Source: Chloroflexota bacterium (GTDB lineage Bacteria > Chloroflexota > Dehalococcoidia > SM23-28-2 > RBG-16-64-32). Taken from it: a stretch of DNA of 64,000 nucleotides. Shown here piece after piece: positions 1 to 36,480 of this stretch (position 1 is its first letter; each line of letters opens with the position of its first letter). The translations under genes and the position numbers were made by a program. Under the pieces are notes generated by a model. The model was given only the letters and a program-made list of their open reading frames with translations, was not told the DNA's origin and ran no database searches. The DNA lies in NCBI GenBank assembly GCA_029262695.1, contig JAJCYV010000022.1, positions 190,886-254,885 on the forward strand, written 5' to 3'.

Positions 1-1785
1 CTGCGCCTGGACGGCGTCCACCTCAACCAGTACGTCTCGAACACGCTCAACCTGCTTCAAGACATCTCGCTCTCGCTTGAGGGCCGCGAATTCGTTGCGC
101 TGGTGGGCGTCAGCGGCGCCGGCAAGTCGACGCTGCTCGACGCGCTCAACGGCTTCCGCCCCGCCCGGGCAGGCCAGGTGCTGGTCAACGGCGTCGACCT
201 CTACGACAACTTCGACGCCTACCGCACGGACCTCGGCTACGTCCCGCAGGACGACATCATCCACAAGGAGCTGCCGGTAGCGCGGGCGCTCAGCTACAGC
301 GCTCAGTTGCGCCTGCCCCCGGACACGACTAAGACCGAGCGCGACGAGCGCATTGAAGAGGTGATCGCGACCCTGAACCTCAGCGAACGACGCGACGTCC
401 CCATTGCGCGCCTCAGCGGCGGCCAGCGGAAGCGCGTCTCTATCGGCGCCGAACTACTGATGAAGCCCGGCCTCTTCTACCTGGACGAGGCGACATCGGG
501 CCTCGACCCGGGCACGGAGAGCCAGATGATGCGCCTCCTCCGTTCCCTGGCCGACGCCGGGCACACTGTCGTGCTGGTGACGCACGCCACGAAGAACGTG
601 ATGCTCTGCGATCAGGTCGTCTTCCTGGCGAAGGGCGGCCACCTGGCCTGGTACGGCCCGCCGGACGAGGCGCTCAAGTACTTCGAGGTGGAAGACTTCG
701 ACGGCATCTACGTGCGACTCGAAGACGAGCTTTCGCCTGAGGTCTGGGGGCAGAAGTACGCCGAATCGCCGCACTACGACCGCTACGTGCGCCAACGGCT
801 GCGCAAGCACTATCCCAACTTCAGCGAGACGGCGACGGGGGCGGCAGACGTCGCGCCCGCCGAACGCGCGGCTCAGACTCACGCGCAGCCGGCGCCGCGA
901 CAGACCTCGCAGCTGAGCCAGTTCCGCATCCTCTCCGCACGCTATCTGGACGTCGTGAAGCGAGACCGCGTGAACGTGGCGCTACTGCTGGCGATCGCGC
1001 CGGTGCTCGGCCTGATCGACCTCATCGCCTGGCCCCGCAACAACTTCGATCCGGTCGGCGGCGACTCGTTCCGGGTGATGACGATGCTCTTCATGGCGGC
1101 GCTCATCCCCTTCCTCGTCGGCGCGCTCAACTCCGTGCGTGAGATCGTCAAGGAGGCGCCGATCTATAAGCGCGAGCGCGCGGTGACGCTGAAGGTATTC
1201 CCATACCTGTTATCCAAAGTCTGGGTGGGGTTCCTGTTCGCGTTCTATCACGCCGGCGCCCTCTTCGCCGTGAAGCTGATCGCCGTCGACTTCGGGCACG
1301 TGGGCACGACGGAGCTGGCCCAGTTCTACTTCACGCTCACGCTGGCGGCGATGTCCGGCGTTATGTGGGGGCTCCTGATCTCTGTCATCGTCCCGCGCGA
1401 GGAGCAAGCGATGGTGCTTGTGATCGCCGTGATCGTACTCCAGATCGTCTTCTCGGGCGGGTTGATCCCGCTGGGCCCGCTGGGCGCCGGCGGCGACGTC
1501 TTCGGCGGCGTCACCAGCACAAAGTGGTCTTTCCAGGCGCTGACGGCGGCCTCCCACGTGAAGTCAGGCGAGTGTGATGGCCCATCGCTGGCGAACTGCA
1601 ACTTACCAGGCCTGAAATCGTATTCAACTGAGGAGCAAAAGCGGGTCGCGCTCGACCCGATCGACGAGCGGTTCGAAGACGTCTTCGGCGCAGACGTCTA
1701 CGTGACCTGGGCAGCGATGGGGATCATCATCGGAGCGCTGTTCGTGATCATCGTCGTCCTGCAAAGACGCAAAGACGTCATCTGA
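1..1785 (+). CDS. ABC transporter ATPase-permease fusion (Rv1747-like), 5' end outside window
   Basis: Frame open from base 1; Walker A GVSGAGKST, LSGGQ signature, YLDEATSGLD, followed by an ABC-2 membrane domain (REIVKE..IYKRER). Confidence 0.9.
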   Translation: MRLDGVHLNQYVSNTLNLLQDISLSLEGREFVALVGVSGAGKSTLLDALNGFRPARAGQVLVNGVDLYDNFDAYRTDLGYVPQDDIIHKELPVARALSYSAQLRLPPDTTKTERDERIEEVIATLNLSERRDVPIARLSGGQRKRVSIGAELLMKPGLFYLDEATSGLDPGTESQMMRLLRSLADAGHTVVLVTHATKNVMLCDQVVFLAKGGHLAWYGPPDEALKYFEVEDFDGIYVRLEDELSPEVWGQKYAESPHYDRYVRQRLRKHYPNFSETATGAADVAPAERAAQTHAQPAPRQTSQLSQFRILSARYLDVVKRDRVNVALLLAIAPVLGLIDLIAWPRNNFDPVGGDSFRVMTMLFMAALIPFLVGALNSVREIVKEAPIYKRERAVTLKVFPYLLSKVWVGFLFAFYHAGALFAVKLIAVDFGHVGTTELAQFYFTLTLAAMSGVMWGLLISVIVPREEQAMVLVIAVIVLQIVFSGGLIPLGPLGAGGDVFGGVTSTKWSFQALTAASHVKSGECDGPSLANCNLPGLKSYSTEEQKRVALDPIDERFEDVFGADVYVTWAAMGIIIGALFVIIVVLQRRKDVI

Positions 1786-4783
1786 CCACAGCCCGCCGCG
1801 GGCGGGCTCTCATGATGTACTCGAGAACGGTCACGCTGCCGTCCAGTTCGATCATGTCGCTGAAGGAGACGTCCGAGCCGTCGAGCTTCTCCAATGCCCA
1901 CGCGAACACGAAGAGATCACTGTAGAGGACATCGGCGTAGAAGAGATCGGCCACGCCGAATGTGACGGTGCCGATTGTGACGATGCCGCTTTCGTTGGCG
2001 GTCCCGTTGAAGTTGACGCTACCGGGGCCCAAGGATTCGGCGCACGAGCCACCATGCCAATCGCTGCATTCAACCACCTCGAGGACGGTCGGGTCGTAGT
2101 CGATGTCGATGTCGTAATAGCCAAGTCCGCCAGACTGCGTGTCGACATCGATGAACATCACCACAGTCTCGTTCGGGAAGATGAAGACGTCGGCGGCGTA
2201 GGAGGCATCGGTGATGTCGATCGTGTACACCTCGGCCACCGTCGGCGCCGTCACTTCGATCGACAACGCCCCATCGCCGCAGCCAGCCTCGTTGCAGGCC
2301 GCGAAACCGATGAATTTCGTGCCCGCGGAGCTGTACGAGGTCGAGAAGGAGGAGCCGGTACCCAACGACGGCGACCCACCCGAGGCGTCCCAGGCGTAAG
2401 CCGTGACCGCGCCGCTGACCGATGAGTTGCAGGTGACCGTCTGCCCGGTCTGGACGGTCGTGGGTGAGCAACCCAGCGAGTTGACGACAGGCGCAGACGG
2501 CGCCGCTGTCGGAGGGGCCGTGGGTGCCGCTGTCGGAGGGGCCGTAGGCGCCGCTGTCGCGCCCGCCGAGACGAAGATCACCTGGGAAGCGCTGTCACAA
2601 CCTTCGTCGCTGCAAGCCTGCAGAGTTATCGTTTTCGACCCCGACGAACCGTACGAAGTGGAGAACGTGCCGCCGCCGCCGGAGCCGGGCGATCCCCCCG
2701 ACGCCGACCACGAACGCGAACTGACGGCTCCGCTGATCGACGGCGAGCAACTGACAGTCTGCCCGGTAGTGACGGACGCCGGCGAGCAGCCAGGCGACTG
2801 GACCACCGGCGGCTGGCCCGGTGCCGCGGTGGGAGCCGGCGTTGTCGTTCCGCCCGAGGCCGTTGGCGACCCGCCTGGCGAGGCGCTCCCCGATGCGCTC
2901 GGCGAAGGCGTCGTCTGCGGCGTGGCCGTGATCTCCGCCAGAATATTCTCAATGCGGGCCGCCATGTTGGCCGCGATCTCTGCGGCGAAGGACTGGTGCT
3001 CCGGGCTATCAAAGTGGGCGATCAGAACGCGGCCCAGGATCGTCTCGTGCGTGAACCCAACGGCCGTGACGGTGAACTCACGCTCGGTGTCGCCGTCGGT
3101 CTGGTGGATCAGTTGCTCCACGCCGGTGGCGTCGCCGCCCATGCCGGCCGGGTTGAAGTCGTCGCTTTCCAATATCTCGTCTTCAGGACAGCCGCCCAGC
3201 ACTATCTGGCTGGCGGGATTGGCGATGAACTCGCTCAGCGCGTCCGCTGCGGCGGCATCGTCCGCGAAGTTATCGACACCCTCGACCAGCGCGAACGTAC
3301 CGCTCTCCGTCGCCAGGCTGGGCTCGAACTCGTACTGGTTGGCATACGACTCAACGGGCGCCGGTACGGACGTCGTGGTTGTCGTGGTTGTCGTGGTTGT
3401 CGTGGGCGCCGGACAGGAGGGCCCGAGGTTCGCTCCTCTGCTCACGTAGCCGGAGACGTCCGGGTTCAGCTGAAACGCCGAGTACTCCGCGCCCAGCTCG
3501 AACTGGCTCGGCATCATGCGCCGCAGCCCGTCACGCCCGATCGTCACCGCCTGCCCAGAGCCCCCGCCGTTGCCCCCGCCGTTGCCCCCACCGCCAAGAT
3601 TGCCCAGAAGGACGAGCGCCACGACGGCGGCCGCAGCGACGATGAGGCCGCCACCGGCGGCAGGGATCCACGATGGCAGTCCACGCTGGCGAGGCGGTGG
3701 CGCCGGACGCGTCCGCCCGCGGCCGGCCGGTGGCTCCGCGGCCTTCGGCGTCTCCCCGGCGGGCTGTTCCGGCTCCTTCTTAACGGGGGTTGCCTCCACA
3801 GGCGTCGCAGCCTGCGTTGGCGGTGTCTTTTCCGGCTCCGCCGCCGGGGGCTCTTCCGGCGGCACCACCTGCGTGGCGGCGCTCAGGTCTTCAGCCTTCG
3901 GCGCCTGCTCCGGCTCCGGCGCGACGATCGTCGGAGCGTCGGCGGCCGCCAGCCCCAGGCGTGAGGCGGCCTTCTCCAGCTCGCCGGCGAGCAGCGTGCA
4001 CGACTGGTAGCGGTCGTTGGGTTCCTTCTTCAGGCACTTGACGATGATCTCGCGCAGCTCCGACGGGATCGATTGCAGTTCGTCCGTCGGCAGCTCCGTC
4101 TCCGCGTGGTGACGGAGGACCTCCAGCGGGTCGCCACCGAACGGCGGGTGCCCGGTGATCGAATGAAAAAGCGTCGCGCCGAGCGAATAGACGTCGCTCC
4201 GGTTGTCGGCGCGGCCAAGAGCGAGTTCTGGCGCGGCGTAGAAAAGCGTGCCGATGAAGGCGCCGGGCATCGTCAGCGTGCCGCTGCTCAGCTGCTTGGC
4301 GATTCCAAAGTCGGCGACTTTGACGGTGTCACCGGCCCCCAGGAGGATGTTGTCCGGCTTGATATCGCGGTGAACGATGCCGCGCGCCTCGGCCTCTTCC
4401 AGTGCGCGGGCAGTCTGCGCGCCGATCCGCAGGGCCCGAGCGGCGGAAAGCGGCGCAGCGGCGATCGCCTCCTTGAGGCTCTGGCCCTCGATGAACTCCA
4501 TGATGATGAAATAGCGCCCTTCGGCGACGCCGTAGTCGAGGAGCCGGACGACGTAGGGAGAGCGAAGGAGCGCGCCCACGTGCGCCTCACGCTCGAAACG
4601 CTCGCGGAACGACTCATCCTCCGCCAGGTGCGGATGAAGGAGCTTGATGGCGACCGAACTGTCGTCGCGGCGGTCCTTGCCCCGGTAGACAACGCCCATG
4701 CCGCCGCCACCGATGGCAGCGCCGACCGAGTAGTGGGTTATCTTCTTCGGAACCTTCTGGCCGCGATAGTTCTTATCCGCCAT
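1778..4783 (-). CDS. Membrane Hanks-type Ser/Thr kinase with sensor domain, two PKD-like repeats and C-terminal cohesin-like domain
   Basis: IGGGGMGVVY, VAIK, HRDIKPDN, DFGIA, YAAPE; TM helix; two CSP..V.TGQTV.C repeats; C-terminal GLGYYDIDIDYDPTVLEVV...TIGTVTF. Confidence 0.9.
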   Translation of the reverse strand: MADKNYRGQKVPKKITHYSVGAAIGGGGMGVVYRGKDRRDDSSVAIKLLHPHLAEDESFRERFEREAHVGALLRSPYVVRLLDYGVAEGRYFIIMEFIEGQSLKEAIAAAPLSAARALRIGAQTARALEEAEARGIVHRDIKPDNILLGAGDTVKVADFGIAKQLSSGTLTMPGAFIGTLFYAAPELALGRADNRSDVYSLGATLFHSITGHPPFGGDPLEVLRHHAETELPTDELQSIPSELREIIVKCLKKEPNDRYQSCTLLAGELEKAASRLGLAAADAPTIVAPEPEQAPKAEDLSAATQVVPPEEPPAAEPEKTPPTQAATPVEATPVKKEPEQPAGETPKAAEPPAGRGRTRPAPPPRQRGLPSWIPAAGGGLIVAAAAVVALVLLGNLGGGGNGGGNGGGSGQAVTIGRDGLRRMMPSQFELGAEYSAFQLNPDVSGYVSRGANLGPSCPAPTTTTTTTTTTTSVPAPVESYANQYEFEPSLATESGTFALVEGVDNFADDAAAADALSEFIANPASQIVLGGCPEDEILESDDFNPAGMGGDATGVEQLIHQTDGDTEREFTVTAVGFTHETILGRVLIAHFDSPEHQSFAAEIAANMAARIENILAEITATPQTTPSPSASGSASPGGSPTASGGTTTPAPTAAPGQPPVVQSPGCSPASVTTGQTVSCSPSISGAVSSRSWSASGGSPGSGGGGTFSTSYGSSGSKTITLQACSDEGCDSASQVIFVSAGATAAPTAPPTAAPTAPPTAAPSAPVVNSLGCSPTTVQTGQTVTCNSSVSGAVTAYAWDASGGSPSLGTGSSFSTSYSSAGTKFIGFAACNEAGCGDGALSIEVTAPTVAEVYTIDITDASYAADVFIFPNETVVMFIDVDTQSGGLGYYDIDIDYDPTVLEVVECSDWHGGSCAESLGPGSVNFNGTANESGIVTIGTVTFGVADLFYADVLYSDLFVFAWALEKLDGSDVSFSDMIELDGSVTVLEYIMRARPRRAVVR

Positions 4784-4888
4784 CTGACTCCCTACCCTCC
4801 TTCAGCTACCAGACTTATAAAGGCTATACGGTGGCAGGTCAAACGCGGACGCAGCTGCCTTCGCCAATCCTCATATAATCTAGGAGCC

Positions 4889-5545
4889 ATGCCCGCCATC
4901 GAGGACGCTCCCGACACCATCGTTCCCGAGGCCTACCTCGTGGTCGCGAGTGAGGGGACGCGGCGCCAGGTCCACCGCCTGGAGAGCGTGCCCGCAACGA
5001 TCGGGCGCTCACCTGACGCCGATGTGCTGATCAACGACCCGCGCGTCTCACGCGCCCACGCCCGCATCGGCTTCGCCGGCGGAAGATTCGTCCTCGAAGA
5101 CCTCGGCAGCACCAACGGAACGTTGCTCAACGGCGAACCGCTGTCGGCACCGGCGGTGCTCACCGAGGGCGACGCAATCTCGCTCGCCGGTGTGCGCGCC
5201 GAGTTCCAGGTCAACGCGCCGACCGTTGTTATGAGCGCGCCGCCCGCGGCGCCCGGCCTGCATATAGACCTCTCGACGCACGAGGTGAAGGTCGACGGTA
5301 AGCCCGTCAAGCTGAGCCCGAAAGAGTACCTGTTCCTCGCCGCGCTCCGCCACCGCGCCGGCAGCGTCGTAGCGCACTCGGATCTGGCCCGCGAAGTGTG
5401 GCCGGACGTCGCCGAAGGCGTCTCGGACGAGAACATCCATCAGTTGGCCACTCGCCTCAGGCGCAAACTCGAAGATAACGCTGAGGGCCCTCGGTACGTC
5501 TTAACTGTAAAGGGCTTCGGCTACCGGCTCGCTGCAGACTCCTGA
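4889..5545 (+). CDS. FHA domain + OmpR-type winged-helix transcription regulator
   Basis: ATG 4889 after TATAAT (4874) and AGGAG; FHA motifs IGR/SRAHA/STNGT; Trans_reg_C motifs LSPKEY, RLRRKLE, TVKGFGYR. Confidence 0.9.
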   Translation: MPAIEDAPDTIVPEAYLVVASEGTRRQVHRLESVPATIGRSPDADVLINDPRVSRAHARIGFAGGRFVLEDLGSTNGTLLNGEPLSAPAVLTEGDAISLAGVRAEFQVNAPTVVMSAPPAAPGLHIDLSTHEVKVDGKPVKLSPKEYLFLAALRHRAGSVVAHSDLAREVWPDVAEGVSDENIHQLATRLRRKLEDNAEGPRYVLTVKGFGYRLAADS

Positions 5546-5551
5546 TACGGC

Positions 5552-5580
5552 GTCAGGCGATCGTCAGGCAACTGTCAGGC
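5552..5580 (+). promoter_or_regulatory. Three GTCAGGC direct repeats at 11-bp period (winged-helix binding site)
   Basis: GTCAGGC at 5552, 5563 and 5574, upstream of the PP2C gene. Confidence 0.7.
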
Positions 5581-5640
5581 GAACGCTCTGTGTGTCCCGG
5601 CGAAGGGCCGTTAACCTGAAGGCAGAGGAGATTCTAGACT

Positions 5641-6408
5641 TTGATTAGATGGCTCTTGGGCCGCGGCTCACAGCGCGGCAACGGCACCGGTGCGACCGTC
5701 GCGCCGGAGTTCGTCGCGCTCACCGACGTCGGCGTCAAGCGAAACGAGAATCAGGACGCCGTACTGGCGAAGCGCCTGCCGGACGCACGCCTCCTACTGG
5801 CCGTTGCCGACGGCGTCGGCGGCTCCGATGGCGGCGCCGCCGCCAGCCAGCTGGCAGTTGGGTGGCTGGAGTGGGGCGTCAGTACCACAGCGGACGCCGC
5901 CGCCGGCCTCAGCAAGGCGTACGCCTCAGCCGACGAAGCGGTCGACGGCCTGGGCAGCGGCAAGCGCAAGCCGGCGACGACTCTGGTGGCGGCGCTCGTC
6001 GACGGCCCGCAGGTCTGGATCGCCAACGTCGGCGACAGCCGCGCCTGGATCATGGGCGACGGCGGCCTGCGCCAGCTGACGGAAGACCACTCCTGGGTGG
6101 CGGACCAGGTGCGCGCCGGCAGGCTGACGCCGGAAGAGGCGCGCACGAGCCAGATGCGCAACGTCATCACCCGCGCCATCGGCACGGGTGATACAGCGGC
6201 GCCAGACCTCACCGGCCCCCTGACGCTCACGCCAGGTGAAACGCTGGTCCTAACGTCCGACGGCCTGCACGGCCTGCTCAGCGAAGCCGAGATCGCGGCC
6301 GTAATCGCCTCAGACGAGCTGGAGGACGCCGCACGGCGCCTGATCCAGATGGCGAACGACGCCGGCGGCCCGGACAACATCTCGGTCGTCATCTACCGCG
6401 CTCCCTGA
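5641..6408 (+). CDS. PP2C-family Ser/Thr phosphatase
   Basis: TDVG.KR.ENQD, VADGVGG, NVGDSR, TSDGL, GGPDNIS. Confidence 0.95.
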   Translation: MIRWLLGRGSQRGNGTGATVAPEFVALTDVGVKRNENQDAVLAKRLPDARLLLAVADGVGGSDGGAAASQLAVGWLEWGVSTTADAAAGLSKAYASADEAVDGLGSGKRKPATTLVAALVDGPQVWIANVGDSRAWIMGDGGLRQLTEDHSWVADQVRAGRLTPEEARTSQMRNVITRAIGTGDTAAPDLTGPLTLTPGETLVLTSDGLHGLLSEAEIAAVIASDELEDAARRLIQMANDAGGPDNISVVIYRAP

Positions 6409-6501
6409 CGCCCGGATCCTCTAACCCGGCGTCTACGAAATTCGCCAACCGTAACCCGGGATACATATCCGCACTCCCCCGGCGGTCGTATGATAGTGGA
6501 G

Positions 6502-9145: not shown

Positions 9146-9148
9146 CGG

Positions 9149-24789: not shown

Positions 24790-25512
24790 ATGCTGGTGGA
24801 CAGGCACACGATCGTGACCCGAAGACCGTTTCCGCTCCTGCTTGTCCCGCTCTGCCTCGTCCTGGCCGCGCTGGCCGCCTGTGGTGGCACGGACAACGGC
24901 TCTTCCAGCGATCCGGCGGCCACGTCGCCGGACGAGCTTCCGGTTGCCGAACTCGGCACACGCTGGGCCACGGCCGAGGCGCAGTCGCTCCAGGCGCTCG
25001 TCGCCTCCACCAACTGGCACTTCACCGCCGAGGTCATCGGCCTCGACCATCAGGAAGAGATCGACCTCGTACCGGACGTGCCCGGCGCGACTCCCGCGCC
25101 GCCGCACCCCGACAAGCCGATACCAGCGAACGACGGCCCGCCGCCCCTTCCCGTCTCGTACTGGGAAGTGCGCGTCACCGACGTAATCTCCGGCGACCTC
25201 AGCCCCGGCGACACGATCCTCATCCGCCAGATGGGCGGCGTTCACGAACAATCGACCGGATCTCTGATCCGCGTCCAGTTCGAGGACGACCCGCCGCTGG
25301 CACCGGGTGAAGAGTACCTGCTCTTCACGCAGGCTTCGTCGAGCAACGTTGTGCAGACTTCTCCCTTCATGCGCATGCAGGTGAACGCGGACGGTTCCTA
25401 CGCCGCCGAAGCGGGGTGGGGCGGCCTGGGCGCGATGGCGGAGATCTCCTCGCTGAGTTCTCCCAGCGCGAAAAGCGCGATCAGGGCCGCGGCCGAAGGA
25501 GCCGGAGAATGA
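24790..25512 (+). CDS. Lipoprotein, coupled to the downstream protease
   Basis: Lipobox LAAC; ATGA overlap with the next gene. Confidence 0.75.
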   Translation: MLVDRHTIVTRRPFPLLLVPLCLVLAALAACGGTDNGSSSDPAATSPDELPVAELGTRWATAEAQSLQALVASTNWHFTAEVIGLDHQEEIDLVPDVPGATPAPPHPDKPIPANDGPPPLPVSYWEVRVTDVISGDLSPGDTILIRQMGGVHEQSTGSLIRVQFEDDPPLAPGEEYLLFTQASSSNVVQTSPFMRMQVNADGSYAAEAGWGGLGAMAEISSLSSPSAKSAIRAAAEGAGE

Positions 25513-28493
25513 ACCGCCGATACGCGCTCGCGCTGACCGCGGTCGTGCTGACGGTCACCGGCATCCTTGCTGGCCTCCAGTTGAACTCCGCTCTAGCGAA
25601 CCACAACCCGGCAGAGGAGCCCGAAAAGAGACTCTTCGGCGAACGCTGGTACCACTCGCCTAACGGCACGCCTTACGTGGAACTCTCCACTAGTTCTGTC
25701 CGCAACGGTTGCGACGGCGACCCCGTGGCCTGTGGCGCGAAATGGAACGGCCCGGTTTCCGGCGGCATCATCGACTGGAACCTGCAGGAAACGACCGTCC
25801 TCTTCGACCCGCAGGGCGACCAGAGCCACTTCTACGACGTCAACATCCAGATCCTTGATAGGCTCTGCGACGCTGACCCGTCACTGCAGCCGGCACCGCC
25901 GGACGACTTCTCCTGTACAGATCTCGGAGTGCAGGCCCCTTACGACTCGAACTACGACTACTGCACCGCCGCCTGCACGACGTACTACGCGTGGGTGTTC
26001 ATCAGCGACGATGAGCACACCGGCCCGTTCGGCGTGCCAGACCAACGCCAGGGCACGGCAGCCCACGAGCTGGGCCACGCCCTGAACCTGAAACACGAGA
26101 GTTCGGGCCTGCCCTGCGGCACGGGCCCCGGCGCCATCGACATCCCGCACTCGGTGGAGGCGTACAACTGCATCGACCCGCCCGCCGAACTCATCGCCGG
26201 CAACCCCGGCCAGGACGAGGGCTACGTACACGACTGGGACGTCTGCGGCGTCAACCACGCCTACCCCGACACCACGATCGGCACCGCCGGCTGCGCGCCG
26301 ACGTGCGGCGGCACGAATGGCGGCTTCGAGAACGGGCTCACTGGCTGGACCCAGGGCACCGTGACTGAGAGCATCACGGCTGTCGGCGTCGACAACATCA
26401 GTGCGGGCAACAACGCCTCGCCGCTCGAAGGCTTGAAGATGGCCCGGCTGGGTCAGAAACAGTCGTCATCCGGGCCGAACCAGCCCGAGGGCCCAAACCA
26501 GCTGTTCCAGATCTTCACGGTGAACAACCCTCAGTTGCGCTGCGCCTACGAGCTGTTCACGTACGACTACTTCGGCTTCGACGAGATCACCGTGGAGCTG
26601 ACCCGCGTCGACACGGGCGCCGTAATCTACTCAACGCGCACGGGCGCGTGGGGCCCCAGTGGCAACACCGACCTGAAGCGGACCGGCTGGAGGATCGTCA
26701 ACGTAGACATGCGCAACCATCTGGGCCGGCAGGTGAAGCTCCAGTTCAGCGCCGCCGGCACCAGCGACAGCCTCTACGCCACCTGGGGCTACGTCGATTC
26801 GGCCGAGATGCAGAAGCCCCTGGACGTCGTCGATACGCCGGCGACTACCGTCGGCGGCGAACCGCCGATGATCGACCCTAACACCGGTCAGATCGTCGTG
26901 CCGGTGTCGCCCGGCGACGACACGGTTCAGATCTCGACTCCGGTCACGTGTCCGGGCGGGGCGTCGCCAACGTCCGTGAGCGCGACCCTCAGCGAGGCGC
27001 CGGAGAGCCCTGTTGCCGCCCCCACTATCACGATCTCCCTCACCAAGGGCGCCGGCGATATCTGGTCGGGCACCTTCAACCTGCCACCGGGCCAGCCGGA
27101 CGCCACCGTCTGGGACCTCAACTACATCGTCAACTGCCCGGACAGCCCGGTCCCGATCGCCGTGCCCGTCGGCAAGGTGATCCTCATCGACCCCAGCGGC
27201 TTCATCACCGACGCCGTCACCAGTCTGCCGATCCCGGGCGCGACCGTCTGGCTGCAGATCTTCAAGGACGGCACGTGGCAGAACTCCAACCCGTTCTTCC
27301 TGATCGACGGCCAGCCGACGATCTCCCCTCAGATCAACCCGCAGACAACCGACAGCAAAGGCCACTACGGCTGGGACGTCGCCGCCGGCAAGTACCGCGT
27401 CGTCGTCACAGCCGACGGCTACATCGGCCAGACCAGCTACGAGGTCAACATCCCACCACCGGTCTTCGACCTCAACCTGGCGCTACAGCCGATCGGCAGC
27501 GGCGGCACGCCAACTCCGACTCCGGTCCCAACGACGCCACCGCCGAGCGGCGTGACCTGGGGCGACGTCAACTGCTCCGGCGGCGGCCCGAACCCGGTCG
27601 ACTCGCTCTTGATCCTGCGCGACGACGCCGGCATCTCTTCCCTGACGGTGCAGGGCGTCTGCCCGCTGCTCGGCACGCAACTGCCGGTCAACGGCGCCCT
27701 GCGATTCTGGGGCGACCTGGACTGCTCCGGTAGTCCACCAGACCCGGTCGACGCGCTCAAGACGCTGCGCCACGACGCCGGCCTGAGCGTGCCGAAAGCA
27801 GACCCGACCTGCCCCAACGCCGGCTCGCCCGTGAACCTGGGTTCGGCCCCCACGCCGACGCCGGTGGCCACGCCAACCCCAACAGCGGCTCCGACGAACA
27901 CGCCGACGCCATCGCCAACGGCGTCACCCAGCCCGTCACCGACGGCAGTCCCGACGGCGTCGCCCAGCCCGTCACCGACGCCGGCGCCCACCGTGCCTCC
28001 TAGTCCGACGACGAGCTGTCCCGGCAGCGGCGCTGGCTTCCCGTTCACCATTCCAGACCTCGACGAACCCGGTGGCCCGGCCGGCATCACGCTCTCCCTT
28101 CTCGGCCAGACCGGCGGCACGATCACCGACCTCGACATCTGCGTCAACGTCGACCACACGTGGGTGGGCGACCTCTTCGTCGAGGTCGAGCACGTCGACA
28201 CGGGAACGACGGTCACGCTGATCGATCAGCCTGGACTACCCGGCGTCGCCTTCGGCTGCTCCGGAGAAAACATCCGTGCCCTGATGGCAGACGAGGCCGC
28301 CACACCGATCGAAGGCGAATGCGCTGGGTCAACGCCGACGATCAACGGCGCGTTCCGGCCGAACCAGCCGCTGAGCGCCTTCGACGGCGAGCAGAGAGCC
28401 GGTGACTGGGAAGTCCGGTTCTTCGACGTGGAGGGCGATCTCCACGAAGTCGGCTCCGTAGTAGGCGCCTCGTTCTTCTTCACGAATCAGTAG
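25509..28493 (+). CDS. Secreted multidomain metzincin-like protease (HELGHALNLKH) with carboxypeptidase-regulatory-like, dockerin-like, Pro/Thr linker and proprotein-convertase P domains
   Basis: Signal peptide; zinc motif; IDPSG/PQTTDSKGHY; WGDVNC..VDSLLILR / WGDLDC..VDALKTLR; HTWVGDL, GDWEV. Confidence 0.85.
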   Translation: MNRRYALALTAVVLTVTGILAGLQLNSALANHNPAEEPEKRLFGERWYHSPNGTPYVELSTSSVRNGCDGDPVACGAKWNGPVSGGIIDWNLQETTVLFDPQGDQSHFYDVNIQILDRLCDADPSLQPAPPDDFSCTDLGVQAPYDSNYDYCTAACTTYYAWVFISDDEHTGPFGVPDQRQGTAAHELGHALNLKHESSGLPCGTGPGAIDIPHSVEAYNCIDPPAELIAGNPGQDEGYVHDWDVCGVNHAYPDTTIGTAGCAPTCGGTNGGFENGLTGWTQGTVTESITAVGVDNISAGNNASPLEGLKMARLGQKQSSSGPNQPEGPNQLFQIFTVNNPQLRCAYELFTYDYFGFDEITVELTRVDTGAVIYSTRTGAWGPSGNTDLKRTGWRIVNVDMRNHLGRQVKLQFSAAGTSDSLYATWGYVDSAEMQKPLDVVDTPATTVGGEPPMIDPNTGQIVVPVSPGDDTVQISTPVTCPGGASPTSVSATLSEAPESPVAAPTITISLTKGAGDIWSGTFNLPPGQPDATVWDLNYIVNCPDSPVPIAVPVGKVILIDPSGFITDAVTSLPIPGATVWLQIFKDGTWQNSNPFFLIDGQPTISPQINPQTTDSKGHYGWDVAAGKYRVVVTADGYIGQTSYEVNIPPPVFDLNLALQPIGSGGTPTPTPVPTTPPPSGVTWGDVNCSGGGPNPVDSLLILRDDAGISSLTVQGVCPLLGTQLPVNGALRFWGDLDCSGSPPDPVDALKTLRHDAGLSVPKADPTCPNAGSPVNLGSAPTPTPVATPTPTAAPTNTPTPSPTASPSPSPTAVPTASPSPSPTPAPTVPPSPTTSCPGSGAGFPFTIPDLDEPGGPAGITLSLLGQTGGTITDLDICVNVDHTWVGDLFVEVEHVDTGTTVTLIDQPGLPGVAFGCSGENIRALMADEAATPIEGECAGSTPTINGAFRPNQPLSAFDGEQRAGDWEVRFFDVEGDLHEVGSVVGASFFFTNQ

Positions 28494-28687: not shown

Positions 28688-28703
28688 TATGACATCCGTC
28701 ACA
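28688..28703. promoter_or_regulatory. CRP/FNR-type box
   Basis: TATGA-CATCCG-TCACA, one mismatch to TGTGA-N6-TCACA. Confidence 0.55.
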
Positions 28704-28779
28704 CAAGCACCCCACCTTTCCACTACAGGCGGCCCGCTATATCATTTGCCTCGCCAACCGCTTCTGGAAGGAGACCCCC

Positions 28780-30168: not shown

Positions 30169-30178
30169 GCGCGCCCCG

Positions 30179-30694: not shown

Positions 30695-30755
30695 GTCCAG
30701 AGCTTATCAGCCCCGAGGTCTGTGATGGACGCGTGCGTTGGTCTTGTTGCGATGT

Positions 30756-30845
30756 TTAGTTGCGGAGGAACGGTGCGCCCGCGACAGCGAGAGCAGCGCC
30801 AACAACCATCAGACTAAATGCAACGTAGGTGAGTCGGGCCTTCAT
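30756..30845 (-). CDS. Peptide A, MKARLTYVAFSLMVVGAALAVAGAPFLRN (29 aa)
   Basis: Manual translation; purine-rich RBS; TTGACA at 30920-30915 upstream. Confidence 0.7.
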   Translation of the reverse strand: MKARLTYVAFSLMVVGAALAVAGAPFLRN

Positions 30846-30890
30846 CCAAACCCCCCTTCCTTCAATGAATTACCCCTTTCAGGGCAGCCC

Positions 30891-30957
30891 ATTAATATCC
30901 CAATACTATTGGCTTGTCAAGGGTTTTGGATAGAAATCTCGAAGACTTGGGAGATTT
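30891..30957 (-). promoter_or_regulatory. Promoter for peptide A/DUF5317 with palindromic operators
   Basis: TTGACA plus AT-rich -10 region; CCAATA-C-TATTGG at 30900-30912 in the spacer; AAATCTC-N10-GAGATTT at 30934-30957. Confidence 0.6.
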
Positions 30958-30971
30958 AGCCAGTTATCGTA

Positions 30972-31012
30972 AAGCAAACACGGGGGCTCCGGACTTTCGG
31001 AGCTCCCCGTGT
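30972..31012 (-). terminator. Intrinsic terminator
   Basis: ACACGGGGAGCTCCG-AAAGT-CCGGAGCCCCCGTGT + TTGCTTT on the minus strand. Confidence 0.75.
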
Positions 31013-31205
31013 CTCGCTATTCGATTCCTGGCCCGTGGACTGCCGGTGCGCGCTGCCGAGGGAGGGCAGCTTACCCTGTCGGTCTCCCTGGTCAGCGCAG
31101 GCAGTAGGAGTGGTTGAGGGGGACCTGGGGCGGCCGCCAGCCTGTCTTCGTCGGAAGCGGCGGCGGCGGGGCGGGGCCCTTGTTGCGGGCCCCTTCTTGC
31201 GGGTC

Positions 31206-31337
31206 TTAGAGGAAGGGGCTTTGTGCTGCGACGGCGGCCAGGACCAGCGCCACGCTGGTGATCACCACGTTCAGCCGAATCGCCGGCCGGGAGTTCGTAT
31301 TCATTCCTTCCGGTCCGTTCTCACGTCGAATTGCCAT
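31206..31337 (-). CDS. Peptide B, (MAIRRENGPEG)MNTNSRPAIRLNVVITSVALVLAAVAAQSPFL (43 or 32 aa)
   Basis: Manual translation; starts at 31337 (AAGGA RBS) or 31304; paralogous to peptide C. Confidence 0.7.
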   Translation of the reverse strand: MAIRRENGPEGMNTNSRPAIRLNVVITSVALVLAAVAAQSPFL

Positions 31338-31349
31338 GCGAGCAGTCCT

Positions 31350-31445
31350 TTAGATTAGCGGGCTCTGCGCGGCCACCAGCGCCAGCAGCAGCGCCAGTGT
31401 TGTTACCGCCCTGTTGAAGCCAACTGTCTTTCCGATTCGCTTCAT
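31350..31445 (-). CDS. Peptide C, MKRIGKTVGFNRAVTTLALLLALVAAQSPLI (31 aa)
   Basis: Manual translation; shares VAAQSP end with peptide B. Confidence 0.72.
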   Translation of the reverse strand: MKRIGKTVGFNRAVTTLALLLALVAAQSPLI

Positions 31446-31499
31446 CAACTTGCTCGTACTACCTTAACGATTCCTTAGCCGATACCGATGAACCCGTAA

Positions 31500-31589
31500 C
31501 TAGGCGATCGCCTGGCGGCGGTCGTTGCGGCCACCCAGGCCCTGGTTGTCGAAGCTCCACTTGATCGCGTTGCGGGTTCGGTTCTTCAT
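31500..31589 (-). CDS. Peptide D, MKNRTRNAIKWSFDNQGLGGRNDRRQAIA (29 aa)
   Basis: Manual translation; GAGGAAG RBS; paralogue of peptide E. Confidence 0.75.
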   Translation of the reverse strand: MKNRTRNAIKWSFDNQGLGGRNDRRQAIA

Positions 31590-31607
31590 CTGATTCTTCC
31601 TCGCTGC

Positions 31608-31843
31608 TGCTTTCGTTCTCTTCTGTGGCTACAGTGTCGCAAGCGGCTCTCGCCGGTTTCTCGCCAGAAATCTCACCAGGCTACGCAATCTGCCCGCGGC
31701 GGCCGTTCAGGCCCTGGTCCTCGTAGCTCCACTTGATTGCGTTGCGTGTGCGATTCTTCATCTGGTTTCTTCCTTGCTACTGCTTTCGTTCTCTTCTGTG
31801 GCTACAGTGTCGCAAGTGGCTCTCGCCGGTTTCTCGCCAGAAA
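31608..31843 (-). promoter_or_regulatory. Duplicated ~63-bp upstream element (31608-31670 and 31781-31843) with GGCGAGA direct repeats
   Basis: TCTCGCC at 31648/31659 (plus TCTCACC at 31671) and at 31821/31832; 11-bp period. Confidence 0.8.
31681..31761 (-). CDS. Peptide E, MKNRTRNAIKWSYEDQGLNGRRGQIA (26 aa)
   Basis: First 12 residues identical to peptide D despite several synonymous third-position changes. Confidence 0.75.
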   Translation of the reverse strand: MKNRTRNAIKWSYEDQGLNGRRGQIA

Positions 31844-31914
31844 ATGTCCGTACCTGAGCCAGATACGAAGAAGCGGCCCGCGAAGGCCGCTCAGGTGTGT
31901 CTGGCGAGATTTTC

Positions 31915-34900
31915 TTATGCGCGTTTGGGCGAGCCGGCTCCGATCTCTCTGACGAGATCGTCGAAGTCGGCGACTTCGCCCGCCAGGTCGTCATCCTCAG
32001 ATACGATCTGTACGTAGCGGTTGTAGCAGTACTTCGCCGCTTCCGTCTGCTGCGCCTGTACGTAGTTGCTCATCAGGCGGTACCAGGCGGCCTCGTTGAA
32101 CTCGTCCAACTCGACGATCTTCTGGCAGATATCGGCGCTCTTCTTGAACTCACCGGCCTCGTTGTAGGCGGCCGAGAGGCTGCCGAGGAGGCTCATGTAC
32201 TGCTCTTCGAGCTGCCAGCGCAATGTTTCCGCCCATTCTGAGTAGAATTCGGGCGCAAACTGGCCCTTGTACAGGCTCACGGCTCGCTCCATCTGCTTCA
32301 GCGCCTCGTCTGTGGCCTCGGCTCCCGAAGCGGCCTCCAACGCCACCTGGAAGCGCTCCACGTCGAAAGCGAAGCTGCCGTTTGGGTCCAGCTGGTAACG
32401 CCCGGACTCCTTGGAGATGATGTCCTTGTACAGCGCCTTGCGCAGCCGGTACATGTTCGAATGAAAAGCGCTCGTCGTCTTCTCTTCGGTCATATCGGGC
32501 CACAGCGCAGCCACGATCTCCTCCTTGCGCAGCCCGCGGCGGTTGCAGAGGAAGAAGAAGAACATCTCGCGGCTCTTCTCGCTGCGCCACTCCAGGTCAG
32601 TGACCTCCTGGCCGTTGTACTCCACACGAGCGTGGCCGAACCCAAACCCCGTGACCGCCGCCTCGTCGGTAGCGACGCCGTCATCGGAATCGCCCTCGGC
32701 GGCCGGCGTGGCGCCCTTCATCAGCTTCTTCAGCCGGGCGTAGTAACCGTCCGCCGCCTTGTTCGCCGCGCCGTACTGGACGAGGAGCGGGTTACGGGCC
32801 GCCTCTACCAGCAAGAAGTGGTCATATCCCAGCTCCTTTACCAGTTCGGCCACCTTTTCCAGGTACTCCAGCGCCACCCGTTTCTTCTTGAGCGAGAAGT
32901 AGGCGCCCGCGGCGTGGAAGTAGGCCGCCGCCAGCTCTCGCCGGGCGTCCTTCTCGCGCAGGTACGGAACCGCCCGCTCCAGGTACTCGACGGCCTCCTT
33001 GAGTTCGCCCTGCTGGCGCTGGATCAGACCCTTCGTGACCAGGCAGATGCCCTGCTCCAGGTCGCCCTCGGTCTTCTCCGCTTCAGCGCTGGCCCGCCCC
33101 GCCCAGGACTCAGCCTGTACGAGGTCGCCCATCAGGCGGTGGGTGTTGGCGACGGCGTCCATGATGTACACACAGATGTAGGCGTCGCCGATGCTCCAGG
33201 CGTCGTCGAGGACCTCGTTGTAGGCATCGAGCGCGGCCTGGTGCTCACCCATCTCGCGCTGGATATCCGCCAGTGACGTGGTTAGGTAGACCTCTTTCTG
33301 CAGGTTGCTAGTGACGCGAACATGCTCAAGACCTTGTTCGTAGATCTCCTTTGCGCGGGCAAAGTCGCCCTGCAGGTAGTAGATCATCCCGAGGTTCACC
33401 AGAGTCTGCACCAGCCGGCCATCGTTGCCCAGCTGTGCACAGAGCTGTCGGGCGCGCTCCAGGTAGCCCACCGCCTCCGGTAGGCGCCCCATCAGGCCCA
33501 GCGAGCTACCGAGGTCCGCGCAAACGTAGGAGATGTTGTACACGTCGCCCACTGTCTCGTAGATATCGACTACCGCAGACAGTTCCTCGATGGCTTCCTT
33601 GAGGTCACCGCAACGGCTGAGAGTCGAGCCCAGCTCCTTACGTGCCTCCGTGACCGTCTCCTCCGGGGCTTCGTGCTCGCTCAGCAGATCGCACGCGCGC
33701 TGGAGGGCGTCCCGCGATTCGAGGTAGTCGCCCTTGACCCGCAGGCTCATGCCGCGCGTCACGAGCGCCTCCGCCAGCGGTACCCAGTCCTCCTTCTCCT
33801 CCAGCAACACGATCGCCTTCGAGACGAGCGAGAGAGCGGCATCGAGCTGGTTCAGGTAGTGCAGAACCCGCCCCTTCCAGAGCATCAGCTGCGGCTGCGA
33901 AGTCATCTCTTCCGCCGGCACGCTGCTCAGCCAGTCGGCCAGTGTGTCGAGCCTGCCCTCCTCGAACATTCGCCAGCCAACCTCTTGGGTTACTTCAATT
34001 ACGTTGTCCCAGGCCGCCGCCTGGATGTAGTGATAGACGGCGTCCTCCCAGCGCTCGTCACTCTCCATTCGCTGAGCGGCGAGCATGTTGAGTTCGCGAA
34101 ACTGCTCTCCGTTGTTGCTGCGGACGTGGCTCACAAGGAAGGCGCGGAGGAGGCTGTGGTAGCGGTAGCGGACGTCTCCGCCCTCCTCTTCGACGAGGGC
34201 GAGGTTAAGGTTCTGCAGCTGCGTCAGCTTCTCCTGCGCGTCTGAGCGCTCCAGCAGCTCATTGACAGACTCAACGCCAATCGTGCGCAGGACTGCGCTG
34301 CTCAGGAGGAACTCCTTGATCTCCGCCGAAAGCGGGTCAAACTGCTCCAGCGAGATGTACTGGAACAGCGTATCGGAGTGGTTCAGCTGCTCCAGGTCGA
34401 CGGAACCCGCCGACTGGACGCGGTCGGCCAGCAGGATCAGCGCGCCCGCCCAGCCCTCCGTAACGTTGGCCATATGCTGAGCATCGTCAAGCGAGATCTC
34501 GCGGCCGAGGACCTCGCGGAAGAGCTGCACGACCTCATCGCAGCTGAACTCGAAGTCGGCAGCGTACAGGCTTGATACTTCCTGGCGCACCGTCATCATC
34601 GGCAGAACGCCGATCTGCGGGCGGGTGCGGCTGCCGAGGATCACGTGGCAGCCCTGCGGCAGCCGGTAGAGCCACCCTTCGACCGCCTTTCGGGTCTCCT
34701 CCGTTGCCGCGTCCAGGTAGTGAAAGTCGTCGATGACGAACAGGTACTCTTCCTGTGGCTCACCGCAGGCCCGCACCATCAGCTCAGAGGCCTCCTCCGG
34801 CGTCACCGGGCCGCCGCTCTCGAGCGCCTTCGCCAGGCCCGAGCCGAAGCCGGGGAACGCCTGCTGGCCGGAGGCTACGAAGTAGCGGAGGAAGGTGTTC

Positions 34901-35217
34901 AGCTCGCGGTCACGCTCGTCGAGGCCGTACCAGCAGGCAGAGGCATCGCTTCCCTGCACGAAGTCCTGAAGGAGCGTCGTCTTGCCGTATCCGGCAGGCG
35001 CGCTGACGATGGCGATGCGGTTCTTCGACGCCTCGCTGAGCGCCTCGGCCGGCCGCTCTCGGCGCACTATCGACGGGCGCCGCTCGGGAAGCTTCACCTT
35101 CGCAACGAACGGGACCTCCAGGGAGCCGCCCTCGGGCGCGCTCGCCTTGCCCGCAGCGCCGGCTGCCGGGCCTCGGGACGCCGCGCGTCGCTTGCTCGTC
35201 TTCCCTTTTTCTGCCAT
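31915..35217 (-). CDS. MalT-like STAND ATPase - TPR - OmpR-type wHTH - BTAD transcription regulator
   Basis: SAPAGYGKTT, VIDDFHY, TEGWAG; TPR repeats; EEIVAALWPD..MYRLRKAL; DVERF, LYKGQF..SEW, E.AWYRLM. Confidence 0.9.
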   Translation of the reverse strand: MAEKGKTSKRRAASRGPAAGAAGKASAPEGGSLEVPFVAKVKLPERRPSIVRRERPAEALSEASKNRIAIVSAPAGYGKTTLLQDFVQGSDASACWYGLDERDRELNTFLRYFVASGQQAFPGFGSGLAKALESGGPVTPEEASELMVRACGEPQEEYLFVIDDFHYLDAATEETRKAVEGWLYRLPQGCHVILGSRTRPQIGVLPMMTVRQEVSSLYAADFEFSCDEVVQLFREVLGREISLDDAQHMANVTEGWAGALILLADRVQSAGSVDLEQLNHSDTLFQYISLEQFDPLSAEIKEFLLSSAVLRTIGVESVNELLERSDAQEKLTQLQNLNLALVEEEGGDVRYRYHSLLRAFLVSHVRSNNGEQFRELNMLAAQRMESDERWEDAVYHYIQAAAWDNVIEVTQEVGWRMFEEGRLDTLADWLSSVPAEEMTSQPQLMLWKGRVLHYLNQLDAALSLVSKAIVLLEEKEDWVPLAEALVTRGMSLRVKGDYLESRDALQRACDLLSEHEAPEETVTEARKELGSTLSRCGDLKEAIEELSAVVDIYETVGDVYNISYVCADLGSSLGLMGRLPEAVGYLERARQLCAQLGNDGRLVQTLVNLGMIYYLQGDFARAKEIYEQGLEHVRVTSNLQKEVYLTTSLADIQREMGEHQAALDAYNEVLDDAWSIGDAYICVYIMDAVANTHRLMGDLVQAESWAGRASAEAEKTEGDLEQGICLVTKGLIQRQQGELKEAVEYLERAVPYLREKDARRELAAAYFHAAGAYFSLKKKRVALEYLEKVAELVKELGYDHFLLVEAARNPLLVQYGAANKAADGYYARLKKLMKGATPAAEGDSDDGVATDEAAVTGFGFGHARVEYNGQEVTDLEWRSEKSREMFFFFLCNRRGLRKEEIVAALWPDMTEEKTTSAFHSNMYRLRKALYKDIISKESGRYQLDPNGSFAFDVERFQVALEAASGAEATDEALKQMERAVSLYKGQFAPEFYSEWAETLRWQLEEQYMSLLGSLSAAYNEAGEFKKSADICQKIVELDEFNEAAWYRLMSNYVQAQQTEAAKYCYNRYVQIVSEDDDLAGEVADFDDLVREIGAGSPKRA

Positions 35218-35436
35218 CCAAACCCCGGTCCGGGAGCCTGGTCCTCAGGACGCACTACGTGTGACCCGCACCGGCAGGGGGCTCCCTCACGATTGCTACA
35301 CGGCGCAGAGTCCGACACTGCGCCGTGTTCGATGACTTAGACGACGCGCTACCGTAACCGTTACACCAATAACCGGCCATTGCCCCGCCCAACCCGTGGC
35401 GCGACCGGGCCTGAACCCGTCTTGTAGACGTAACAG

Positions 35437-36480
35437 TTGACCGCCGAACGGGCCGGCGCGAAGATGGGGCAGATGAACCCTGGCGCCCCACCGGAACCGC
35501 CCCTCCCCTTCCGCCTCCGAGCAGCCCTCAAGCCCGCATTGCTCCTGGCGCTGACTGCGTCACTCGCACTGGCGGCGATGATCGGCCTCGGCGCCCACGG
35601 GACCGGCGCCGACCCCTCCTTCGACAGCGAGGAGCAGGCGTTCCTGGCGCTGATCAACGATTACCGCGCTCAGAACGGCCTTACGCCGAACGCCCGCGCG
35701 CCGCTGACCACGGACTGCCGCCTCAACGCCGCCGCCGACTGGTTCGCCAACGATATGGCGATCGACAACTATTGGCCGATTAATCACCACGACAACGAGG
35801 ACCCGCCGCGCAACCCGGCCGAGCGCGCGGCGGCGTTCGGCTTCAACGCCCCCGTTGGAGAGAACATCGCCGGGGGTTACACGACGGCGGAATCAGTGTT
35901 TGCGGCGTGGAAGGGGTCATCCGGCCACAACTCCAACATGCTCGGCAACTATGCGGCGATCGGTATCGGCCGGGCCTATCACCCCAACGCCCAATACGGC
36001 TGGTACTGGGTGACGGACTTCGCGGCCTACGTGCCGGCGCCCGCGCAACCGGCGTGCTCCCCACCGGCGACGCCTCCACCGGCAACGACCAGCGCTCCCG
36101 CGCCGACACCAACGCCCACACCGACGCCCACGCCCGCGCCGACGCCGACTCCGACGCCCGCGCCAACGGCTACGCCCGTCCCACCGCCTGCGCCGACGAC
36201 CGAACCGCTCATCTGGGGCGATACCAACTGCGCCGGCACCATCGGCCCGGTGGACTCGATCCGCGTGCTGCGGCTGGACGCCGGCCTGTTCACGACTACG
36301 CCAGCGGGGTGCCCGCCGATGGGCAGCGAGGTGTTCGTGGGCGGGATCATGCACCTCTGGGGCGACGTCAACTGCCGCAACGGCCCCGATCCGGTGGACG
36401 CGATGCTGATGCTGCGCTACGACGCCGGGCTGAGCGTCAACATTCCAGAAGACTGCCCCGGCCTGGGCGAACCGGTCTAG
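35437..36480 (+). CDS. Secreted CAP (SCP) domain protein with PT linker and dockerin-like tail
   Basis: LINDYR, GENIA, W..SSGH..NML, IGIG, YWVTDF; WGDTNC..VDSIRVLR / WGDVNC..VDAMLMLR; start may be 35464 or 35473. Confidence 0.85.
   Translation: MTAERAGAKMGQMNPGAPPEPPLPFRLRAALKPALLLALTASLALAAMIGLGAHGTGADPSFDSEEQAFLALINDYRAQNGLTPNARAPLTTDCRLNAAADWFANDMAIDNYWPINHHDNEDPPRNPAERAAAFGFNAPVGENIAGGYTTAESVFAAWKGSSGHNSNMLGNYAAIGIGRAYHPNAQYGWYWVTDFAAYVPAPAQPACSPPATPPPATTSAPAPTPTPTPTPTPAPTPTPTPAPTATPVPPPAPTTEPLIWGDTNCAGTIGPVDSIRVLRLDAGLFTTTPAGCPPMGSEVFVGGIMHLWGDVNCRNGPDPVDAMLMLRYDAGLSVNIPEDCPGLGEPV

Follow-up and report, generated by a model that had tools for sequence, protein, structure and literature searches.

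Cohesin–dockerin pairs, in wide use among protein engineers, are a textbook means of extracellular protein assembly, and to our knowledge they serve as glue, not as sensors. A 64,000-nucleotide stretch of a Chloroflexota bacterium genome (assembly GCA_029262695.1, contig JAJCYV010000022.1, positions 190,886 to 254,885; hereafter the window) raises the question of whether such a pair might also be put to use in transmembrane signalling. The initial annotation of the window proposed that a receptor Ser/Thr kinase is tipped with a cohesin, that a secreted protease and a secreted CAP-family protein carry a common dockerin-like module, and that docking could be read by the kinase. We find that the C-terminal domain of the kinase almost certainly has the cohesin fold, and we have hardly any doubt that the common module is homologous to dockerins; beyond the window, the genome very likely encodes a working cohesin–dockerin display system. 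Taken as a whole, the reading in which the kinase cohesin captures dockerin-bearing proteins, and in which occupancy or a bound ligand alters the kinase, is a tentative proposal that we rate slightly short of even.

The kinase gene and the domains of its product, in window coordinates, are the following.

1778..4783, minus strand: receptor Ser/Thr kinase gene (P0001), an open reading frame (ORF) of 1001 amino acids (aa); Pfam Pkinase, 158.9 bits
3989..4732, minus strand: Hanks kinase domain, aa 18–265; Pfam PF00069, 158.9 bits
3584..3673, minus strand: single membrane helix, about aa 371–400; Kyte–Doolittle hydrophobicity
2924..3556, minus strand: membrane-proximal ectodomain of no assigned family, aa 410–620, with a run of 11 Thr; no Pfam match
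2249..2806, minus strand: two PKD-type immunoglobulin-like domains, about aa 660–845 (bounds approximate); Pfam PKD in two stretches, E = 1.5e-10
1781..2248, minus strand: C-terminal cohesin domain, aa 846–1001, distal tip of the ectodomain; Pfam, AlphaFold2 (AF2), Foldseek and homologue set

The segment at aa 371–400 is the sole hydrophobic one above threshold in the whole protein, and with one membrane helix the kinase domain should be cytoplasmic and about 600 aa extracellular, with the cohesin-like domain outermost. The kinase domain is active-looking, judging from the family match and from the complete set of catalytic motifs, all five of which are intact (G-loop at aa 25, VAIK at 44, HRDIKPDN at 138, DFG at 158 and APE at 184). 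It is the only Pkinase match (E ≤ 1e-10) in the genome, which is about 90% complete at 2.53 Mb. For the membrane-proximal domain the Pfam scan gave nothing, and the look-alikes retrieved by Atlas are hypothetical proteins, mostly from Chloroflexota. The 11 consecutive threonines in the ectodomain (aa 459–469) lie at about 3377–3409 of the window on the minus strand, and a contig from run X3 is short by 9 letters in total between 3365 and 3378, at this very run, which suggests that the threonine linker varies in length among relatives.

The assignment of the kinase tip rests on family models, homologues and predicted structure. Pfam Cohesin (PF00963) matches the full-length kinase at aa 870–938, and the C-terminal 160 aa alone score 23.4 bits (E = 7.4e-5), where the cut-off of the family is 24.1, so that the HMMER check proposed in the initial annotation did return the family, but not at the family's own threshold. 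P0007, a relative with PKD domains and a similar cohesin, reaches 25.5 bits. A search with aa 846–1001 against 1.84 billion representative proteins yielded 48 matches at E ≤ 1e-3, and in the corresponding alignment (49 rows including the query) PF00963 is present in 30 rows, with a best E-value of 2.9e-58. The AF2 model, built from a 15-row alignment, has a mean predicted local distance difference test (pLDDT) score of 84.6 and is all-beta, with ten strands of at least three residues according to DSSP. Foldseek retrieved 139 PDB matches to it at E ≤ 0.001, and every one of the 37 listed is, judged from its title or content, a cohesin entry. A fold other than cohesin, the outcome that the initial annotation had named as refuting its proposal, is not among them. 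The best match is the OlpC cohesin (4dh2_C, E = 4.5e-9, TM-score 0.71), and TM-scores to type I cohesins are 0.63–0.72, as expected of the flattened beta-sandwich (jelly roll) of cohesins. Together with the PF00963-positive homologues, these matches bear out the cohesin-like end of the kinase ectodomain. In the 15-row alignment a pair of cysteines of the domain (C61 and C69) is nearly invariant, which fits an extracellular location. Sequence comparison with single proteins or other family collections gave no such signal: phmmer against PDB sequences returned a single chance-level row (E = 0.96), and the NCBIfam scan returned no match at E ≤ 1.

Identity to solved cohesins is 10–18% among the matches listed. 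This divergence, together with the sub-threshold Pfam score and the small number of relatives among so many representative proteins, is compatible with a scenario in which the cohesin fold binds something other than a dockerin, such as a glycan, some constituent of the wall or a different protein, and in which the presence of dockerins in the same genome is incidental to the kinase. We regard this scenario as quite improbable, in the first place because 20 of the 49 rows of the homologue set also carry the dockerin family PF00404.

The two secreted proteins of the window and their modules are located as follows.

25416..28493, plus strand: secreted putative zinc metalloprotease with an internal dockerin (P0002); HELGHALNLKH motif, weak Reprolysin_3 match, N-terminal hydrophobic segment
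27549..27842, plus strand: Cys-braced double dockerin module of the protease; regular expression, family alignment, AF2, VIA-align and hhalign
35437..36480, plus strand: secreted CAP-family protein with a C-terminal dockerin (P0003); Pfam CAP, E = 1.6e-15, N-terminal hydrophobic segment
36205..36477, plus strand: Cys-braced double dockerin module of the CAP protein; regular expression, profile search and family alignment

A six-frame regular-expression scan of the window turned up the GDxNC...PVD...LRxDAG repeat in exactly four places, two in the protease ORF (27561–27632 and 27711–27782) and two in the CAP ORF (36217–36285 and 36361–36429), and thus recovered the duplicated WGDxxC module that the initial annotation had described in both proteins. 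The likeness of the two modules is far beyond chance, because a profile made from them alone retrieves 40 ORFs of the genome with a domain independent E-value below 0.01 (26 of them at E < 1e-18). The match list of this profile grades into ORFs that Pfam calls Dockerin_1. The Pfam check for dockerins, also proposed in the initial annotation, did not recognize the window modules: PF00404 gave nothing on either module at E ≤ 10, and NCBIfam nothing at E ≤ 1. Likewise, phmmer of the module against PDB sequences produced no match, and the profile of the module family found only one dockerin there, at E = 0.11. The relationship emerges from profile–profile and structural comparison. In an hhalign comparison with nine dockerins of this genome that PF00404 recognizes, the 23 full double modules reach a probability of 98.9% (E = 1.9e-17). 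The AF2 model of the protease module (mean pLDDT 92.2) has helices at residues 16–26 and 66–76 and a short hairpin between the repeats. Foldseek was weak on this model alone, although its top nine rows are dockerins (E = 0.48–4), so the fold was decided by an exhaustive VIA-align comparison with 48,161 PDB representatives. Only 16 chains, 15 dockerins among them, reach Z ≥ 2; Z-scores to 11 dockerins are 5.5–7.7, and the best match, 4dh2_D, covers 69 of 70 residues at Z = 7.7 with a root-mean-square deviation of 2.2. The suggestion that the common module is a relative of dockerins is thereby upheld, and we take the module to represent a divergent dockerin subfamily that lies outside PF00404 as currently modelled.

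None of the four cysteines varies among the 23 full double modules (23/23), in keeping with the conserved cysteines noted at the outset. In each repeat one cysteine occupies loop position 4 and the other stands in a C-P pair after the helix, so that each of the two calcium-loop/helix repeats of this apparently lineage-specific dockerin is bracketed by a conserved Cys pair; from this invariance, disulfides are a reasonable inference. Further marks are a Trp ahead of GD, a Pro at loop position 10 and a hairpin of about 14 residues between the repeats. A 12-residue calcium loop is seen in 21 of the 23 first repeats and 21 of the 22 second ones, giving the tandem of loop and helix that defines a dockerin. 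In canonical dockerins the calcium ligands are at loop positions 1, 3, 5, 9 and 12, and position 5 is Asp or Asn. In the repeats read by the pattern scan, positions 1 and 12 are always Asp (23/23 first and 22/22 second repeats), position 3 is Asn or Asp in 21/23 and 22/22, and position 9 is Asp or Asn in 22/23 first repeats and Thr or Ser in 17/22 second repeats. Position 5 is Ser in 17/23 first repeats and Gly in 13/22 second repeats. Both loops of the protease module are 13 residues long; in the CAP module, loop positions 5 and 9 of the first repeat are occupied by Ala and Gly, respectively. In the 23-module alignment the protease and CAP modules are the outliers of the family, with 45–58% identity to other members. 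The internal position of the protease module is itself unusual: it is followed by a Pro/Thr-rich linker and a 166-aa C-terminal domain (aa 860–1025; 27993–28490, plus strand) for which Pfam gave no match at E ≤ 1. The protease probably starts at the Met at 25509.

Since the two tagged genes share the window with the kinase, one might suppose that the protease and the CAP protein are its specific ligands and that the three genes form a local functional unit. Both proteins are indeed tagged and both genes lie 21–31 kb from the kinase gene. However, 40 tagged ORFs in 2.53 Mb amount to 1.01 expected per 64 kb, and the probability of finding at least two is 0.27, so their nearness to the kinase is within chance. 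The genes in between are housekeeping genes, among them those of pyruvate:ferredoxin oxidoreductase, a thioredoxin-reductase-like enzyme, an MMPL transporter, an amidase and aldehyde dehydrogenases, with a fumarase-class lyase gene behind the protease gene. Moreover, these are the two most divergent modules of the family, with atypical loops in both protease repeats and in the first CAP repeat. A local unit is therefore very improbable, and a special tie of the kinase to these two proteins, as implied initially, finds no support: of the tagged ORFs, which number about 40, they are merely two. A 1100-aa ORF (31915–35217, minus strand), oriented divergently to the CAP gene, encodes a NACHT-type NTPase domain and TPR repeats and ends in a BTAD domain. 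Large regulators of NACHT/TPR/BTAD build are targets of Ser/Thr kinases in actinomycetes.

The genome-wide census of both domains, which the initial annotation had called for, places the kinase in a larger context, with 40 dockerin ORFs and 8 cohesin ORFs. The dockerin module ends at most 15 aa from the stop codon in 31 of the 40 ORFs, and an N-terminal hydrophobic segment is present in 39 of them. Across 43 dockerin ORFs, the domains besides the tag include PD40 propellers (6), beta-helices (5), BNR_4 (4), subtilases (2) and CAP (2). The eight cohesin ORFs, collected with a profile of the cohesin alignment, have one cohesin apiece, and no multi-cohesin scaffoldin is among them; no glycoside-hydrolase family occurs among the 25 listed of the 40 families found in the 43 dockerin ORFs. 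Among these eight ORFs and the 25 families listed, neither a multi-cohesin scaffoldin nor glycoside-hydrolase cargo, the two marks of a cellulosome, was thus found, in agreement with the non-cellulosomal nature initially proposed. Besides the kinase, the cohesin ORFs comprise two small proteins with VPNTGG or LPPTGG motifs, one protein with a C-terminal membrane helix and four proteins that combine cohesin and dockerin, one of them a subtilase. In the two small proteins the C-terminal VPNTGG or LPPTGG is followed by a transmembrane helix and an Arg-rich basic tail, and the genome has four sortase genes (PF04203 above its cut-off); motif, helix, tail and enzyme together mark them as predicted sortase-anchored proteins. 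The single-cohesin proteins thus appear to include wall- or membrane-anchored sockets as well as cohesin-plus-dockerin adaptors. The genome, which belongs to an uncultured lineage of high GC content, gave no match in a scan for WhiB.

Gene order points in the same direction. On contig C20, three cohesin genes come directly after the gene of a 1488-aa dockerin protein; they encode an anchor, an adaptor that bears a Cys-dockerin, and a form anchored in the membrane. The nearest in-genome paralogue of the kinase cohesin is a sortase-type anchor flanked by two Cys-dockerin genes, and its setting in a cohesin/dockerin cluster again argues against a non-dockerin ligand for the kinase. Dockerin-tagged genes also often occur in head-to-tail arrays of two to four, as at C22:310408-316820 (about 56 kb past the end of the window), C16:31024-37167, C39:34255-39502 and C24:16056-20469.

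Among 40 related genomes (designated G001 and so on), the dockerin module is present in 24, including all seven of the same genus, with up to 76 matches in one of them (the complete genome G006), and the cohesin profile has matches in 22. Both occur in 20 relatives, neither in 14, the module alone in 4 and the cohesin profile alone in 2, with the reservations that these relatives are not independent and that the tail of the cohesin profile spans some dockerin and anchor columns, so that a few matches, such as the sole one in G018, are not cohesins. This co-occurrence, too, speaks against a cohesin with a ligand unrelated to dockerins. The cluster of three cohesin genes is also found in five genomes, four of the same genus (G001, G004, G005 and G006) and one of another genus (G022).

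The fusion of kinase and cohesin is conserved within a narrow clade. The orthologue of G011 (995 aa) is intact, and the cohesin profile matches its C-terminus at E = 1.7e-25. A further eight proteins, all metagenomic (P0020, P0052, P0053, P0056, P0057, P0061, P0066 and P0067) are kinases with HRD and DFG motifs and have a cohesin as the last domain (E = 1.8e-23 to 4.3e-43). The orthologue of G006, a member of the same genus, is 76% identical over aa 1–912, and its ORF ends at 897 aa owing to a frame change inside the cohesin, at about position 1745 of locus L057 (G006:C1:1550400-1557000); a ninth metagenomic homologue, P0055 (877 aa, on a 2.66-Mb contig), is truncated in the same way. G004 encodes a kinase-less homologue of the ectodomain (603 aa, 41% identity over aa 414–987). 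At five loci of relatives with cohesin matches, several of them in frames of 609–1081 aa, tblastn with the kinase found none, and a search of genome contigs with the whole kinase returned only six unrelated kinases from other phyla. A second DNA run, from the same study as the best-matching one, carries the cohesin region 1778–2288 with no differences.

What else occupies the tip of such kinases is informative. The five next-closest kinases all lack a cohesin and are 51–63% identical in the kinase domain, a range that refers to these five closest non-cohesin relatives, including those of G039 and G004. Their ectodomains, according to Pfam, are PD40 plus TSP3 in G039 and periplasmic-binding domains in two kinases of G004, and have no match in G022 and G016. 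Evidently, as far as domain architectures tell, the ectodomain of this kinase family has been freely swapped, and the cohesin would take the sensor position that other ectodomains hold in related kinases. At locus L071 of the same-genus genome G004 (G004:C60:14800-21200), two receptor kinases stand in tandem, with periplasmic-binding-protein ectodomains (Peripla_BP_6/ANF_receptor). In the genome under study the two best matches of the PD40 ectodomain of the G039 kinase are dockerin-tagged PD40 proteins, C22:310408-311655 (47% identity, E = 3e-68) and C29:21873-23123 (43% identity, E = 3e-60). The comparison is suggestive of a PD40 domain that is fused to the kinase in G039 and split from it, with a dockerin, here.

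These observations bear on the main competitor of a docking sensor, in which the cohesin merely tethers the kinase to a surface scaffold or displays cargo and the domain at aa 410–620 does the sensing. Four of the eight cohesin ORFs also have a dockerin and could bridge cohesins in the manner required, and the membrane-proximal, PKD and cohesin domains stay together in the kinase-less homologue of G004. G006 retains the kinase with a broken cohesin, and Atlas connects the membrane-proximal domain to PknH_C, the extracellular sensor domain of PknH (0.90, 159 shared features). That lead, however, is below the reliable range of the tool; the cohesin is outermost in all eight full-length metagenomic kinases, and classical sensor domains hold the same position in related kinases. 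We therefore see the tether as a possibility to be taken seriously, although it is rather unlikely.

If docking itself is the signal, an output path is needed, and the genes next to the kinase offer a candidate.

4889..5545, plus strand: FHA plus OmpR/PhoB-type winged-helix regulator, 218 aa; Pfam FHA, E = 8.4e-22, and Trans_reg_C, E = 7.4e-18
5641..6408, plus strand: PP2C Ser/Thr phosphatase; Pfam PP2C_2, E = 6.8e-15

The regulator gene is divergent from the kinase gene and the PP2C gene comes next; the FHA regulator adjoins the kinase also in G006 and G011, with PP2C behind it in G011. The two neighbours likely supply a read-out path for the kinase. Short contigs of metatranscriptome library X11, 92–97% alike, lie over parts of the kinase (including 2031–2327), FHA and PP2C genes; they are a weak hint for a related strain and not proof of transcription, and the gaps in their coverage carry no meaning. 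On the other side of the kinase gene, a fused ABC transporter (ATPase plus ABC-2 membrane domain; 1–1785, plus strand) is convergent with it and overlaps its 3′ end by 8 bases.

In the scheme that follows from combining these elements, the kinase cohesin would capture at least one dockerin-tagged secreted protein, and the activity of the kinase would change with occupancy, with clustering or with a ligand bound by the docked protein. In the next step the kinase would phosphorylate the adjoining FHA and winged-helix regulator, and the PP2C phosphatase would reverse the phosphorylation and reset the regulator. The steps differ in how much we would stake on them. On balance we lean towards the kinase cohesin binding a dockerin of this family, but that the kinase reads such docking is doubtful. 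Structure prediction of a complex of the kinase cohesin, the protease module and two calcium ions scored 0.00 twice, in runs without controls, and counts neither way.

Several observations weigh against the scheme. The kinase cohesin stays 0.7 bits below the Pfam cut-off, and PF00404 is silent on both window modules; among canonical calcium ligands, loop position 5 is mostly Ser or Gly in this family, and the protease loops depart from the 12-residue length. No dockerin gene lies next to the kinase here or at the G006 and G011 loci read. The frame change in G006 is either a sequencing or assembly error or real decay, and in the latter case the tip would be dispensable. G003 has 52 module matches, no Pkinase at E ≤ 1e-20 and no match to the kinase cohesin, so that the display system can do without the kinase. 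The membrane-proximal domain could be the true sensor. As for the PD40 comparison, untagged PD40 proteins of the genome match the G039 ectodomain nearly as well (E = 2e-59 and 3e-52). An extended version of the scheme is that of a split modular receptor, in which the cohesin tip is a universal socket and dockerin-tagged binders, for instance PD40 propellers, plug in in trans; we think this version unlikely, somewhat more so than the tether.

How far do known systems resemble this one? With clostridial type I pairs (the Clostridium thermocellum OlpC cohesin–Doc435 complex, PDB 4DH2, and 1OHZ) both folds are common, and clostridial cellulosomes likewise combine a duplicated loop–helix dockerin with sortase-type or membrane-anchored cohesins. 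The differences are that here each of the eight cohesin proteins has a single cohesin (8/8) in place of a multi-cohesin scaffoldin, that the cargo consists of propellers, beta-helices, proteases and CAP proteins and, among the families listed, not of glycoside hydrolases, and that one cohesin sits on a kinase. Compared with the clostridial dockerin, the module here has four invariant cysteines, the Trp before GD, Pro at position 10, Ser or Gly at position 5 and the longer hairpin of about 14 residues. Closer in spirit are the Archaeoglobus fulgidus cohesin (2XDH) and the NagJ–NagH pair of Clostridium perfringens (2OZN), modules that, as here, are unrelated to cellulose breakdown; both entries are among the fold matches of our cohesin and module models. 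Peer et al. are said to have surveyed non-cellulosomal cohesin and dockerin modules in 2009. In the literature searched, which did not extend to the architecture tables of that survey, we came across no account of a fusion between a cohesin and a protein kinase, and in the same literature none of Cys-braced bacterial dockerins. As far as found there, the component parts are of known kinds and the combination of cohesin and kinase is new.

On the signalling side, the nearest counterpart is PknH–EmbR of Mycobacterium tuberculosis, a receptor Ser/Thr kinase and an adjoining FHA-domain transcription regulator (PMC8636726, PMC9239209). Here, too, the gene of a membrane Hanks kinase adjoins that of an FHA and winged-helix regulator, and by analogy the same kinase-to-FHA logic is likely the output path. 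The likeness has limits: the regulator here has no BTAD (FHA and Trans_reg_C only, in Pfam) and is accordingly not counted as an EmbR-type protein, and the kinase ectodomain ends in PKD and cohesin domains, a PknH_C-like proximal domain being a weak lead only. Kinases with fused sensors, such as the G039 and G004 proteins and PknD, are of the same kinase family and topology. The ectodomain of M. tuberculosis PknD is a propeller. In the present kinase, by contrast, the sensor position would be a protein-docking socket, and PD40 propellers are separate, secreted and dockerin-tagged. The RsgI anti-sigma factors of C. thermocellum have carbohydrate-binding ectodomains and control cellulosome genes. 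They offer a looser analogy, that of a membrane signalling protein which may have borrowed a cellulosome-type module as its extracellular sensor, although there an anti-sigma factor is joined to a carbohydrate-binding module and here a Hanks kinase to a cohesin.

The consequences are of two kinds. Pfam does not see a large subfamily of Cys-pair dockerins that extends over more than half of the relatives (24 of 40) and reaches up to 76 matches in a single 2.5-Mb genome, and current annotation therefore undercounts cohesin–dockerin systems in uncultured marine and biofilm bacteria. As regards the kinase, the conserved joining of a cohesin with the genome's sole Ser/Thr kinase, together with the FHA/PP2C output, makes the docking read-out directly testable with a few recombinant domains. 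If true, a split receptor would allow one Hanks kinase to sense many ligands, or to monitor the cell's own exoproteome, via an FHA transcription factor, and it would be the first cohesin–dockerin pair to serve transmembrane signalling, not assembly.

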